A DNA stretch of 33,150 bases from Gemmatimonadales bacterium. GTDB taxonomy: Bacteria; Gemmatimonadota; Gemmatimonadetes; Gemmatimonadales; GWC2-71-9. Shown here piece by piece: positions 15,559 through 21,838 of this stretch; position 1 is the first letter of the stretch; the number at the start of each line of letters is the position of its first letter. The notes under the pieces were generated by a model. The model had not been told where the DNA came from. It did no database searches and was given only the letters and a program-made list of their open reading frames with translations. Where the stretch lies: NCBI GenBank assembly GCA_036270315.1, contig DATBCS010000148.1, forward strand, positions 1 through 33,150, given 5' to 3'. Position numbers and translations under genes: made by a program.

Positions 15559-16101
15559 TCAGGTGGTCGGCGCAACGCGCAGGGCGTCATTGAACCGGTT
15601 GAAGTACTCGGTCATACCGATGACCAGCGTGAGCTCCACGATCTGGCCGTCATCCCACGCGGCGCGCAGCTTCCTGTACAGGTCGTCCGTAACGTCGTGT
15701 CCCGACCGGTGGACCACGTCGGCGTACTCCAACGCGACTCGCCACCCAGGCTCCAGCCGTTCGACCGCCTCACGACCGCCACGGTCCTGGATCGCGTCGA
15801 CCAGCGCCTCGCTCGCACCCTTCTGTCCCGCCAAGACAGTATGGGAGTTGAGTCAGTAGCGGCAGCGATTCAGGTGCGAGATGCGCACCCACAGGAGCTC
15901 CTTCAAGAGCGGCGGCACCGTCCCCTCGTTCATCACGACGCGGAAATGCGCGACGAGGGTGCGCAGGTGATTGGGTCGCAGTGCGACCGTGCGAAACATG
16001 TTGGGGATGTTGCCGCGCTCCTGGAGAAACGTGTCGAAGATGGGCCGCACGTCGGGGGCGGCCTGGTCGGGCGCGAGGGGCGTGATGCGTGGGTCCGTCA
16101 T
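15559..16101 (-). CDS. AhpD-like / carboxymuconolactone-decarboxylase-family protein with in-frame TGA (candidate selenocysteine, codon 83, at 15853..15855)
   Basis: Two track ORFs, 15853..(16101) and 15559..15834, lie in the same frame and are separated by a single TGA. The joined read ELLWVRISHLNRCRY-TGA-LNSHTVLAG fits the AhpD core motif N-x-C-x-Y-C-x3-H. ATG 16101 has GGAGG 6 nt upstream and an ATGA overlap with the upstream gene. Confidence 0.8.
15818..15845 (-). promoter_or_regulatory. Candidate bacterial SECIS hairpin downstream of TGA 15853..15855
   Basis: Hand-folded mRNA: CCC-(A)-U-(A)-CUGUC-[UUGGCGG]-GACAG-(A)-A-GGG. The GG in the apical loop is 22-23 nt after the U of UGA. Confidence 0.4.
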
Positions 16102-16973
16102 GGGTTGCCTCCGGAGCGCTTGCCCCACCCGATCTTGAACAGCTCGACGGTGGCGCGGTAGCCGAGCTGGCGCACCAGGACGTAGACGCCGAGGAGCGTG
16201 AGCAGGATGGTCGAGTAGAACCGCCACAACACCAGCATGCTCACCTGGCGCGCCCCGAAGTCCCCGGCGAAGCCGTTCAGGAACGCCACTTCGAGCCCGC
16301 CGCCGCCCGACGGCAGCGGAACCACGAGGGGCGCCTGCAGCAGGGCGAGTGAGCCGTAGAGCATCTGGCTGAGCGACGGGCGGGCCGGCATCCCCCAGGC
16401 GAGCGCCGGGAGGATCAGGGCGCGAGCCGCGATGCTCACGACGGTGAGCAGGGCGCCCGCGCCCAAGACCCACCACGGGGCCCGGCGCACGTGGGCCAAG
16501 GCGACGCGCCACTGGCGCCGTACCCGGTGGGGGATCGTCCCGGAGCGCACCAGCCGCTGCAGCAGGTAGATCGTGAGCAGCACGACCAGCGCGATGACCT
16601 CGACCGTCACCAGCTCGCCGGCGCGGTGGCGGCGCAACCACACGAGCGCCGCGGCGCGCCAATCCGGGACGTAGTACGCGAACAAGAGGCCGCCGAGGAT
16701 CAGGAAGACCGGCCATTCGGAGGCCACCTCGACGCCGATCGCCACGATCCCCGTGACCGGGCGCAGGCGGGCTTCGTTGAGGCCGAGGAAGCGGGCCGGC
16801 TCGCCGCCCAGGCGATTGGGCGTGAGCTGGGAGGCCGCTTCGCCGTACAGGTTCAGCCGGAACGCGTCCCCGAACGACAGCCGCCCGCCCGCGGTCCAGA
16901 CGGCGAGCTGGATGCGCCACGCGCGGACCACGCAGTCGATGGCGAGGAGCGCCAGGGAGAGGAGGTGGCCCAC
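16098..16973 (-). CDS. Flippase-like / lysylphosphatidylglycerol-synthase-TM-region family membrane protein (start uncertain)
   Basis: Polytopic membrane protein. LSLALLAIDCVVRAWRIQL...LNLYGEAASQLTPNRLGGEPARF resembles the PF03706-type R-W/R-x-x-L and G-G-E-x-R segments. GTG 16973 was chosen because it lies just after the Zn-ribbon stop. The ORF is open up to 17069. Confidence 0.6.
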   Translation of the reverse strand: MGHLLSLALLAIDCVVRAWRIQLAVWTAGGRLSFGDAFRLNLYGEAASQLTPNRLGGEPARFLGLNEARLRPVTGIVAIGVEVASEWPVFLILGGLLFAYYVPDWRAAALVWLRRHRAGELVTVEVIALVVLLTIYLLQRLVRSGTIPHRVRRQWRVALAHVRRAPWWVLGAGALLTVVSIAARALILPALAWGMPARPSLSQMLYGSLALLQAPLVVPLPSGGGGLEVAFLNGFAGDFGARQVSMLVLWRFYSTILLTLLGVYVLVRQLGYRATVELFKIGWGKRSGGNP

Positions 16974-16980
16974 GGTGCGA

Positions 16981-19825: not shown

Positions 19826-20548
19826 CTATCCGTCTCCGGCAACGGCGAGTACCTGGCCGGTGACGGCGCGCGCCTCGTCGCTCGCGAGGTACAGAACGGC
19901 CGCGACCAGGTCGTCGAGCTCCACCCAGCGCACCTTCGCATCGGTGATCTGGGCGAGGTTGTCGGTGGTCTTCATCGTGCCCGGGGCGACGGCGTTGACC
20001 CGCACGCCGCGCCCCTGGAATTCGCGCGCTAGGGCGCGGGTCAGGCCGGCGACCGCCGCTTTCGCGGCGATGTAGGAGGCCATCTGGGGCTGGGGCCTGA
20101 GCACCGCGACCGAGGCGAAGTTGACGATCGCCCCGCCGCCGCGCTCGAGCAGCGCGGGGAGGGCGGCCTGGGACAGGTAAAACGTGGTCTTCACGTTGAC
20201 CGCGAGTTCGCGCTCGAACTGCTCGGGGGGCGTGCTGAGGACGGGGCCGTAGTACACGAGCCCGCCGGCGACGTTGACCACGACGTCGAGCCCGCCGAAC
20301 TCCTGGCGGGCGGTGGCCACGGCGCGCTGGGCCGCGTCGGGGGTCGTCAAGTCACCTGCGACGCTCCGGACGGTGAAGCCGGCCGCGGTGAACTCGGCGG
20401 CCCGCTCCGCCACCGCCGCCGCGGTGCGATCGGCGATCACGAGGGCCGCCCCGGCGCGCCCGAAGCCGCGCGCCACGGCCTGCCCGATCTGGCCGACGCG
20501 GCCCACCCCCGTGATGAGGGCGACCTTGCCGCGGAAGTCAGGCGGCAC
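19826..20548 (-). CDS. Short-chain dehydrogenase/reductase (SDR)
   Basis: GKVALITGVGRVGQIGQAVA (glycine-rich loop), NVAGG and YIAAKAAV (Y-x3-K). The start is GTG 20548 or GTG 20590. Both overlap the peroxiredoxin 3' end. Confidence 0.8.
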   Translation of the reverse strand: MPPDFRGKVALITGVGRVGQIGQAVARGFGRAGAALVIADRTAAAVAERAAEFTAAGFTVRSVAGDLTTPDAAQRAVATARQEFGGLDVVVNVAGGLVYYGPVLSTPPEQFERELAVNVKTTFYLSQAALPALLERGGGAIVNFASVAVLRPQPQMASYIAAKAAVAGLTRALAREFQGRGVRVNAVAPGTMKTTDNLAQITDAKVRWVELDDLVAAVLYLASDEARAVTGQVLAVAGDG

Positions 20549-20987
20549 GGCGGACGGCCGCGACGATCGCGTCCGGCGGTGGCGCCCCACGCTCGGCGAA
20601 GGCGACGGTGCCGTCGCGCGTGATCAGGTAGACGGAGCGTTGGATGCCCTTGCCGTCGTCCTTGAGCGCGTGGTAGGCGCGCGCGATGGTGCGGTCGGGG
20701 TCGGAGAGGAGGGGAAAGGTGAAGCCCAGTTTCCGGACGTAGCCCGCGTGGGCTTCCACGCTCGCCGGGTTCACGCCGAACGGCTGGATGCCCGCCTTCC
20801 GAAACTGTGCCATCTCGTCGCGCACGGCGGAGAGTTGACGGTTTCAGCCGGGGGTGTTGTTGCCCGGATAGAAGATGAGGGCCACATGCTGCGTCTTGAG
20901 CACGTCGCCGAGCGTGTAGGTCTGGCCGTCCGAGGCCCGGGCGGTGAACGCCGGGGCGATGGTGTCGAGCGGCAGCAGGTCGGTCAT
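20538..20987 (-). CDS. Bcp/PrxQ-type peroxiredoxin with in-frame TGA at the peroxidatic Cys position (candidate selenocysteine, codon 48, at 20844..20846)
   Basis: The frame of track ORF 20538..20825 continues upstream through one TGA. The full read is MTDLLPLDTIAPAFTARASDGQTYTLGDVLKTQHVALIFYPGNNTPG-TGA-NRQLSAVRDEMAQFRKAGIQPFGVN...FPLLSDPD. It is collinear with E. coli Bcp (VLVYFYPKAMTPGCTVQAC...LLSDED). GGAGAGG SD lies before ATG 20987. ATGA overlap with the PHP gene. Confidence 0.85.
20813..20840 (-). promoter_or_regulatory. Candidate (weaker) SECIS-like hairpin downstream of TGA 20844..20846
   Basis: Hand-folded: UCUC-CGC-[CGU]-GCG-(CGAC bulge)-GAGA, with an alternative outer CGUC/GACG pairing. 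The G-U in the apical loop is 22-23 nt after the U of UGA. Confidence 0.3.
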
Positions 20988-21838
20988 GGAGCCTCTCCAG
21001 GGGGCTGTGGGTCGGTGTGCGGCGCCGCGGCGAGGCGGCGCGCCTCGAGCTGCTCGAGCCAGGCGAGCGGGATGTCGAGCCCGCCGAGCGACGCGTGGGC
21101 GTCGCCGAACACGGTGTCGCCGTGCCAGTCCGAGCCGCCGCTCACGGCCAAGCCGAGCCGCTCGGCCAGTGCGGTGAGCCGCCGCTCGGTGGCGGGGGAG
21201 TGGCTCGGATGGCGGACCTCGAGCCCGTCCAGGCCCTGCTCGCGGAACTGGCGGAGTTGGCCCTCGCTCCCGTGGTCGCCCAAGTGGGCCGCCACGGCGA
21301 CGCCGCCCGCCGCGTGCGCCAACGCGGTGACCTGGGCCAAGGTGGGCAGCGGTTTCTCCACGTAGCCGGGTCGCCCCCGCGCCAGGTAGCGCGCGAACGC
21401 GTCGTTGATGTCGGCGCTTGCGCCCCGTTCGACCAGCGCCCGAGCCACGTGGGGCCGGCCCACCGCCCCGCCGTTCGCGGCGCGCACCACATCCTCGACC
21501 GCGATCGGCACGTTCAGCCGCTGCAGCCGCGCGACCATCTGGTCGGCGCGCTGCCGGCGCGCGGCGCGGGTGCCGGTGAGGAACGCTGCGAGCCGGGGGT
21601 CGCCCGGCGCGAGAAAGTAGCCCAGCACGTGCAGCTCACCCCAGGGGGCCCGCACGCTGAACTCGCACCCGGGCACGACCCGCAAGCCCAGGGCGGTGCC
21701 CGCCCGTGTCGCCTCCGGGACGCCCTCCGTGGTGTCGTGATCGGTGAGCGCGATCGCCGCGAGACCTGCCGCCCGCGCGCGCCGCGCCACCTCGGCCGGC
21801 GGGTATTCCCCGTCCGAGGCGGTCGAGTGGCAGTGCAG
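20984..21838 (-). CDS. PHP-domain (polymerase/histidinol-phosphatase-like) metal-dependent phosphoesterase. No canonical start codon upstream of the first metal-binding motif.
   Basis: The frame reads ...[40 protein letters not shown]...HVLGY...DWHGD. The D-L-H-x-H-S motif lies upstream of the first ATG/GTG/TTG (GTG 21790). Start tentatively set to CTG 21838. Confidence 0.65.
   Translation of the reverse strand: [284 protein letters not shown]

Follow-up and report, generated by a model that had tools for sequence, protein, structure and literature searches.

Here we describe a co-directional gene array on the minus strand, at 15559-21838, of a 33,150 nt stretch of DNA from a Gemmatimonadales bacterium (referred to as the window, meaning the whole stretch that was analysed), in which a peroxiredoxin (Prx) gene and an AhpD-like gene, both carrying an in-frame TGA, are located on either side of the thioredoxin reductase gene trxB. 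From the sequence comparisons described below both TGAs are very probably selenocysteine (Sec) codons, and the two genes are new members of already known predicted selenoprotein families. The explanation that we favour, and that we regard as fairly probable, is that of an operon-like syntenic block specific for the phylum Gemmatimonadota, with two genuine Sec genes from known families acting as separable modules. Most likely it is by happenstance that the array holds the thioredoxin reductase used for housekeeping along with two selenoproteins from the commonest redox families. The features that carry the Sec assignment, together with trxB, are the following:

20538-20987, minus strand: Prx gene, BCP/PrxQ-like, 149 codons (Pfam AhpC-TSA, 106 bits)
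20844-20846, minus strand: in-frame TGA of the Prx gene, candidate Sec codon (motif FYPGNNTPG-U-NRQL)
20814-20834, minus strand: candidate hairpin of the Sec insertion sequence (SECIS) type in the Prx gene (RNAalifold and sequence invariance)
17731-18699, minus strand: trxB, encoding TrxB (TIGR01292; CAVC)
15559-16101, minus strand: AhpD-like/CMD gene, 180 codons (Pfam CMD and TIGR00778)
15853-15855, minus strand: in-frame TGA of the AhpD-like gene, candidate Sec codon (motif HLNRCRY-U-LNSH)
15823-15839, minus strand: SECIS hairpin of the AhpD-like gene (covariation and RNAalifold)

The Prx protein lies far above the PF00578 cut-off (106 bits vs 26), has BCP/PrxQ and the 1-Cys enzyme AhpE as its nearest solved structures and carries the candidate Sec at codon 48 within the motif PxxxTxxU (P41, T45, U48), with the active-site residue R117 being invariant across the homologues. 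Cys-form homologues (56–74% identity) show TPGC at the place where the window protein shows TPG-U. Of the related sequences, 28 distinct ones from about 25 Gemmatimonadota assemblies have TGA at this codon (the window brings the number to 29), as do 78 of the 80 metagenome loci of a scan anchored on Prx, and 7 distinct Cys-form sequences have TGC or TGT there. Many of the Prx entries in the databases are C-terminal fragments of 91–96 aa derived from the TGA forms. The 149-aa product is free of any Cys, the +5 position being occupied by Ser, and judged by its sequence the protein is of a '1-Sec' type with no resolving Cys at CP+5 or elsewhere, so that the selenenic acid formed with peroxide would have to be resolved by another molecule. 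It resembles the Sec-Prx family (PF00578, TxxU; PrxU, NF040737) in its AhpC-TSA fold, the PxxxTxxU motif, the conserved Arg and a SECIS located right past the UGA (PMC13188914, PMC2398784), but differs from PrxU in being nearer to BCP/PrxQ and AhpE, in reaching only 37 bits against the NF040737 cut-off of 270 and in having no Cys.

Past the UGA of the Prx gene a hairpin with the sequence CUCUCCGC-CGU-GCG(C)GA(Y)GAG is predicted, consisting of 8 pairs with two bulges and a CGU loop that starts 17 nt past the UGA and has a G at loop position 2 (minimum free energy, MFE, −11.5 kcal/mol including the lower extension). At 20 of the 21 positions no variation is seen over 29 sequences, and the sole variable base is the bulge predicted by RNAalifold, although the proteins sharing the hairpin are merely 52–77% identical to the window protein. 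Synonymous variation after the UGA is strongly suppressed in the U forms only: computed over codons with a conserved amino acid, the third-position entropy of the 11 codons past the UGA is 0.13 in the U forms vs 1.04 elsewhere in the gene, and 0.70 vs 0.98 for the same codons in the Cys forms. A longer stem suggested by the single fold of the window (pairings GAAAC...GUUUC and CGUC...GAUGG) was rejected, as it is neither kept in the alignment nor predicted by RNAalifold.

The AhpD-like protein passes the cut-offs of PF02627 (39 bits vs 23) and of the AhpD core model TIGR00778 (39.9 bits vs 27.8), its nearest solved structures are 2oyo and 6k40, and it is classed as a COG2128-type CMD family member. 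In its motif E68...C80-R-Y-U83-x3-H87 the Sec takes the second position of CxxC; throughout the family Glu68, Tyr82, Sec or Cys at position 83 and His87 are invariant, with C80 being replaced by Ser in a single homologue. This is the position of the second Cys in the CxxC of Mycobacterium tuberculosis AhpD, which we take to be the nucleophile there. All named (seleno)protein models are missed (TIGR01926 65.9 vs 81.8, NF053654 78 vs 310 and NF041238 32 vs 175 bits), and also the best NCBIfam match, a 'YciW-related (seleno)protein', stays below its cut-off. Compared to the AhpD-like 1 family (COG2128/TIGR01926) from the Sargasso Sea and Global Ocean Sampling (GOS) data the protein shares the CMD/AhpD core, the CxxU motif and abundant Cys homologues (PMC2398784, PMC13188914), whereas it is distinguished by falling below the TIGR01926 cut-off and, in Gemmatimonadota, by being set inside a trxB array. 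Cys-form homologues are of full length (72–77% identity) and read CRYCLNSH in place of CRY-U, while at least 8 database fragments stop exactly at ...NRCRY and C-terminal fragments begin just past it. Scanning the alignment against one genome per species gave 80 loci; the codon is TGA in 70 distinct loci and TGC or TGT in 13 distinct Cys-form sequences, and the TGA loci span Gemmatimonadota, about 35 Acidobacteriota, Ktedonobacterales, Anaerosolibacter, one proteobacterium and one actinomycete.

The corresponding hairpin of the AhpD-like gene is a 7-bp stem, CUGUCUU-GGC-GGGACAG, that begins 13 nt past the UGA and whose loop GGC starts 20 nt past the UGA with a G at loop position 1 (MFE −9.5 kcal/mol including the lower stem). 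Over 71 sequences 98.8% of the cells are paired and four of the seven pairs show compensatory switches between C-G and U-A (59 cells), a covariation score that none of 500 shuffles reached; slid registers fall to 32–53% paired, and RNAalifold independently predicts the same hairpin. At alignment columns 21/35 and 23/33 the compensatory pairs tie a change at a silent third position to one that alters an amino acid 10–14 nt off (for example ACU/ACC with CAG/CGG), and judged from the alignment such linked changes are unexplained by selection at the protein level. The Cys-form sequences do not have this hairpin. A lower stem (columns 14-16 with 39-41) is 72% paired with zero covariation and was not taken as part of the element. 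In at least six phyla the hairpin (ACCGCCUUGGCAAGGCGG and compensated variants) is kept with respect to both sequence and position, with L046-L089 being the loci outside Gemmatimonadota.

Both hairpins satisfy the published constraints for a bacterial SECIS, namely a loop of 3–9 nt with a G among its first two nucleotides, a stem of 4–16 bp, a distance of 16–37 nt between UGA and loop and an MFE of −7.5 kcal/mol or lower (PMC13188914). Recoding of the UGA in both genes is thus very probably local and would occur via a small hairpin 9–13 nt downstream that fits the bacterial SECIS consensus. Single-sequence folds past each TGA also contain the hairpins with z-scores that are not significant at 70% GC, and a comparative analysis was used for this reason. 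Rfam searches, performed with gathering thresholds for the window and with E ≤ 10 for the region, gave no SECIS family and only a tRNA-Leu and chance matches, and no tRNA-Sec was found in the window or in the first 89 loci. In tblastn alignments spanning the TGA, conservation of the coding sequence extends to either side of this codon in 29 (Prx) and 70 (AhpD-like) sequences, the lowest protein identity to the window among the TGA forms being 44–52%. Gene callers cut both genes at the TGA, as might be expected if these codons were nonsense mutations, marks of split genes, sequencing errors or codons for another amino acid. We find this hardly credible, and it is already largely refuted: 29 and 70 independent sequences have the TGA exactly at the codon of the catalytic Cys, with purifying selection acting to either side of it, and the SECIS hairpins are confined to the TGA forms. 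Moreover, TGA is the stop codon in 21 of the 33 genes delimited within the window, and because of this the genetic code of the source is standard and not changed. A changed code, a sequencing error or a pseudogene as cause of the TGAs is ruled out by the recurrent TGA together with these stops. Taken by itself, the Sec assignment is in our view highly probable from the comparative evidence. In this respect we agree with the initial annotation, which had regarded both TGA genes as Sec candidates of thiol-redox families with trxB between them and had counted at least a dozen genes ending in TGA as a sign of local, SECIS-dependent recoding.

The window has a G+C content of about 70%, and its closest relatives are Gemmatimonadales from soil known as metagenome-assembled genomes. 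Within 15559-21838 we counted ten co-directional minus-strand genes and not eleven as stated at first, although ten had also been listed by name; their domains and the tight order could be reproduced with Pfam and NCBIfam. These ten genes form the distal portion of an array of 14 genes that runs from E1-alpha to the AhpD-like gene (25662 to 15559) in the order E1-alpha, E1-beta, E2, 104-aa gene, PHP, Prx, SDR (short-chain dehydrogenase/reductase), AF_1314_C, DUF309, TrxB, MBL (metallo-beta-lactamase fold), Zn-ribbon, membrane protein and AhpD-like. The genes not listed above are:

24607-25662, minus strand: E1-alpha (NCBIfam name)
23627-24610, minus strand: E1-beta (NCBIfam name)
22172-23617, minus strand: lipoyl-E2 (NCBIfam name)
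21855-22169, minus strand: 104-aa protein (translation)
20984-21838, minus strand: PHP phosphoesterase (Pfam PHP)
19826-20548, minus strand: SDR (Pfam adh_short)
19045-19803, minus strand: Cys-rich Rossmann protein, AF_1314_C family (PF27252 carried by relatives)
18680-19048, minus strand: DUF309 (Pfam PF03745)
17096-17734, minus strand: MBL-fold hydrolase, glyoxalase-II-like (Pfam Lactamase_B)
16981-17169, minus strand: Zn-ribbon protein, 62 aa (conserved Cys-rich C-terminus)
16098-16973, minus strand: LPG_synthase_TM/flippase-like membrane protein (Pfam PF03706)

The junctions across the 14 genes range from −74 to +22 nt and five of them are overlaps of 4 nt. As had been proposed, the array continues upstream into the 104-aa gene and the E1/E2 genes, the junctions from E1-alpha to PHP being −4, 9, 2 and 16 nt. 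Its borders are an HMA gene at 25772, which is divergent, and a cupin gene at 15192-15524, which is convergent. Gaps of at most 22 nt and the many 4-nt overlaps suggest that the array may be co-transcribed; a promoter scan of the region gave zero promoter-like sites, and terminator-like sites fall inside genes.

The neighbourhood is conserved in one respect and not in another. Its gene order is kept in all Gemmatimonadota loci, with AhpD-like identities across them of 48–84%, and in every locus of sufficient length E1-beta, E2, TrxB, MBL and aspartase occur in a constant order. Usually these loci also contain PHP, Prx and the genes for the Zn-ribbon and AhpD-like proteins, and E1-alpha and the 104-aa gene were not detected in the more divergent loci of the phylum. 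In relatives MBL always comes next after trxB. The most invariant adjacency of the array is that of TrxB and MBL and not one involving either selenoprotein gene. Gene content varies in several ways: L035-L045 lack SDR, AF_1314_C, DUF309, the 104-aa gene and the membrane protein, with some of L032-L045 keeping DUF309; SDR is still present in L032-L034 and the membrane protein is absent throughout L032-L045; a group of the L007 type has DUF4149 in place of the membrane protein; and a third group has a second SDR gene inserted. Conservation ends at the phylum boundary. About 40 AhpD-like orthologues from five other phyla (37 TGA, 3 Cys) have zero array genes within 10 kb, the exception being L057 with E1/E2 on the opposite strand at 2.6–5 kb from the AhpD-like gene. 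In about 19 Acidobacteriota loci the AhpD-like gene comes after genes for a STAS anti-sigma antagonist and an RsbW-like kinase, neighbours which hint that it might there be controlled by a partner-switching module of the stress response. Inside Gemmatimonadota the unrelated flanks, namely the upstream 2-oxoacid dehydrogenase genes and the downstream genes for aspartase, Rrf2, sulfur-carrier cysteine synthesis and SmpB, are conserved to the same degree, and because of this the synteny of the array is indistinguishable from shared descent.

Prx and the AhpD-like gene are not always kept together. In the reciprocal scan anchored on Prx, which covered 80 metagenome loci, eight loci (L114, L117, L124, L132, L149, L157, L161 and L164) show Prx(U) in an otherwise complete array from which the AhpD-like gene is absent, the membrane-protein gene then directly adjoining aspartase. 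In two genomes the AhpD-like gene is present and Prx is absent from the array (L042 with AhpD-U and L060 with AhpD-C), PHP being directly followed by TrxB or SDR. In the Gemmatimonadales locus L027 the AhpD-like(U) gene is located on the strand opposite to the array, 0.6 kb from the membrane-protein gene. Regarding the Sec and Cys states, most lineages are (U,U), with DASPXE01, DATDFC01, QHUT01, QHUU01 and DATLKF01 as examples of such assemblies, at least two groups of loci combine Prx U with AhpD C, and Gemmatimonadaceae-type lineages are (C,C); the combination of Prx C with AhpD U was never seen among the array loci. This pattern fits a functional coupling and a genome-wide presence or loss of the Sec trait equally well. 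For Prx, TrxB and the AhpD-like protein as a coupled unit we therefore found neither an adjacency beyond shared descent nor co-retention, and the conserved gene order cannot serve here as evidence of a functional unit.

We favour separable modules over an obligate pair because Prx and the AhpD-like gene are lost independently and the AhpD-like orthologues outside the phylum occur without array genes; the array also contains genes with no evident redox role. In such a scheme the selenolate of Prx would reduce a hydroperoxide and be converted to a selenenic acid, which would be recycled by an external thiol or selenol protein. The AhpD-like protein would cycle between the reduced form with Cys-SH and Sec-Se(−) and an intramolecular selenenylsulfide. 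The ultimate source of electrons for the two selenoproteins would be NADPH, acting via the thioredoxin system, with TrxB being encoded between them and thioredoxin elsewhere. TrxB itself is a low-molecular-weight NADPH thioredoxin-disulfide reductase with a CAVC centre that passes TIGR01292 with 351.3 bits (cut-off 343.45), and reductases of this type normally work via thioredoxin. With the BCP/PrxQ–thioredoxin–TrxR system the array has in common that a BCP-like Prx and an NADPH-dependent TrxR are encoded about 1.8 kb apart; it differs from that system as no thioredoxin gene is found in the array and as its Prx is without any Cys and uses Sec as the peroxidatic residue.

Several observations weigh against this explanation. 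The order Prx-...-TrxB-MBL-(Zn-ribbon)-AhpD persists in most lineages while SDR, AF_1314_C, DUF309 and the membrane protein vary, and a functional link, too, would lead one to expect such persistence amid gene turnover. The losses were scored within the array, so that a second copy may exist elsewhere in the same genome. That electrons pass from TrxB to either selenoprotein is an assumption, given an array that has no thioredoxin gene. Regarding the Sec assignment itself, the Prx hairpin shows no covariation owing to its invariant sequence, and none of selA, selB, selC and selD was found within the window or the fetched loci, which applies to those stretches only.

Among the other functional explanations a dedicated selenol relay, which the initial annotation had proposed by analogy, survives best, even though we consider it unlikely. 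In this case the selenenic acid of Prx would be resolved by Sec83 of the AhpD-like protein via a Se-Se or Se-S bond and then by Cys80, with re-reduction by TrxB and NADPH, either directly or via thioredoxin. Such a relay is chemically attractive because the Cys-free Prx depends on another molecule for its resolution, a part for which the AhpD-like protein, which keeps the E...CxxC/UxxxH catalytic motif with Sec in the second position, is a plausible candidate. It would also agree with both genes lying in one tight co-directional array around trxB, with the persistence of this array across the phylum despite the turnover of intervening genes and with the missing state of Prx(C) and AhpD(U). On the other hand, this missing state is explicable by the Sec trait being present or lost genome-wide, the synteny may reflect descent only, as flanks like E1/E2, aspartase and Rrf2 are equally conserved, and the independent losses (eight loci without AhpD, two without Prx) and the AhpD(U) genes outside the phylum with neither Prx nor TrxB as neighbour argue against it. 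In addition, the thioredoxin that a low-molecular-weight TrxR normally needs is not encoded in the array, and the Prx is of the BCP/PrxQ type and not a typical 2-Cys AhpC. The relay is thus chemically plausible and as an obligate system not supported. Its most far-reaching form, an all-selenium peroxide relay of the Cys-free Prx and the CxxU AhpD-like protein with a diselenide or selenenylsulfide intermediate, driven by TrxB and possibly with the Zn-ribbon or MBL protein as accessory, appears decidedly unlikely to us.

Improbable is a role in thiol and sulfur metabolism, in which a YciW-type AhpD-like protein, a pAp-phosphatase-like PHP, TrxB and MBL would, along with the Rrf2, rhodanese, PALP and ThiS-ThiF-rhodanese genes located downstream, serve cysteine and sulfur assimilation and not a defence against peroxide. 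The best NCBIfam matches of PHP (3',5'-nucleoside bisphosphate phosphatase) and of the AhpD-like protein (YciW-related) would point in this direction, as would the sulfur-carrier cysteine-synthesis set found downstream in the window and in relatives. However, all of these family matches are below their curated cut-offs, and the convergent cupin gene, aspartase and an outer-membrane-protein gene separate the sulfur genes from the array.

Very improbable is a link of the mycobacterial type, in which the AhpD-like protein would be reduced by the dihydrolipoamide arm of the array-encoded E2. E1-alpha, E1-beta and lipoyl-E2 are indeed part of the same tight array in Gemmatimonadota loci reaching far enough upstream, and the best NCBIfam match of E2 is an actinobacterial SucB/DlaT-type model (412 bits vs a cut-off of 423). 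As in the AhpC-AhpD-DlaT-Lpd system of M. tuberculosis, genes for an AhpD-type CxxCxxxH protein, for a peroxiredoxin and for a lipoyl-E2 are grouped in one place. Mycobacterial AhpD serves a typical 2-Cys AhpC, whereas the window Prx is BCP-type and not AhpC, the AhpD-like protein belongs to another CMD subfamily and Sec is present in both proteins. An E3 (Lpd) gene was found neither in the array nor elsewhere in the window, the adjacency of the window type is phylum-specific with its genes being lost independently, and outside the phylum AhpD(U) is unlinked to E2 save in L057. Finally, the adjacency of E2 is no more specific than that of aspartase on the other side.

Turning to the remaining genes of the array, MBL starts with a 4-nt overlap on the trxB stop codon and has GloB as its best NCBIfam match, which lies below the cut-off. 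The start of the Zn-ribbon gene overlaps the 3' end of MBL by 74 nt, and its Pfam match to HVO_2753_ZBP is weak. Across Gemmatimonadota the Zn-ribbon protein begins with MD[RP]K and has the near-invariant C-terminus C[LMIQ][RKQ]CG-x8..12-GC[KR]xPCxxCGxxYP[LT]GDC[ST]D; gene callers miss this small gene in relatives. For the Cys-rich Rossmann protein, which is identical to P0241 among the relatives, the AF2 model has a pLDDT of 87.7, and sequence and fold searches of the PDB gave matches limited to the N-terminal Rossmann piece. In many relatives the AF_1314_C Rossmann protein is fused to DUF309 (P0254, P0302, P0312, P0334, P0349 and positions 6313-7416 of L004), and this recurrent fusion suggests that the two proteins may work together. 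The 104-aa protein lacks a CxxC motif, matches no family and was dismissed as a candidate for the missing thioredoxin. PHP resembles 3',5'-nucleoside bisphosphate phosphatase and RNase RNM with matches to NF041577 and NF047791 that are below the cut-offs. No ATG, GTG or TTG start was found upstream of the HxH motif of PHP in the window. Relatives (e.g. L011, 1381-1650) have an 89-aa open reading frame (ORF) between the 104-aa gene and PHP, and PHP starts there at a GTG (MPTTHVDLHCHS) overlapping this ORF; at 21836-21860 the window is without about 290 nt and hence without the 89-aa ORF and the normal PHP start. PHP in the window may therefore start at CTG 21838, may be a start-less gene or may be affected by an assembly error.

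Downstream of the array the gene at 13733-15139 (minus strand) belongs to the aspartate ammonia-lyase subfamily NF008909 (627 bits vs a cut-off of 510), and an identity as fumarase was rejected by scores below the class II fumarase cut-offs. Further downstream, at 7768-12075 on the minus strand, follow an Rrf2 regulator, a tandem rhodanese, a PALP enzyme and a ThiS-ThiF-rhodanese fusion, resembling a sulfur-carrier cysteine-synthesis set. This set is syntenic across the phylum, with a JAB peptidase also being present there in relatives.

Both selenoprotein families of the array are known from earlier surveys. Among prokaryotic selenoproteins in the GOS survey AhpD-like 1 (COG2128, CxxU) was fourth in abundance and Prx (TxxU) sixth (PMC2398784, Table 2), and both families are listed in a 2026 review (PMC13188914). 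GOS reads have yielded one record of Prx-like and AhpD-like selenoprotein genes lying side by side (PMC2398784), and the review mentions such adjacent genes as a possible functional link (PMC13188914). The view that the combination has not been characterised as a unit holds for the array with trxB, of which we found no description in the literature apart from these brief notes on adjacent genes (PMC2398784; PMC13188914); evidence for a new mechanism we found none. The array shares two Sec genes in one co-directional unit with known multi-selenoprotein operons (grdA-grdB, prdB-prdC, SAO, Tso and the GOS Prx-like/AhpD-like pair) but differs from them in the families involved, Prx (TxxU) and the COG2128-type AhpD-like family that matches TIGR01926 ('AhpD-like protein' in PMC13188914), which are separable and have seven non-Sec genes including trxB between them. 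Gemmatimonadota are not mentioned in the 2026 review (PMC13188914) or in the BSepDB paper of the same year, and literature searches for Sec use in this phylum gave nothing relevant.

In summary, the array provides well-supported examples of both selenoprotein families in a soil phylum that is absent from the 2026 review and the BSepDB paper, and Prx and AhpD-like (COG2128) proteins belong to the most abundant selenoproteins predicted for bacteria. For the AhpD-like gene there is now a SECIS alignment across phyla with real covariation. The natural series of genotypes, comprising (U,U), (U,C), (C,C), Prx-only and AhpD-only, can be used for evolutionary and biochemical comparison, and the AhpD-like protein as resolving partner of a Cys-free Sec-Prx is a testable hypothesis. 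If the all-selenium relay were true, it would give the AhpD-like 1 selenoprotein family its first assigned function.

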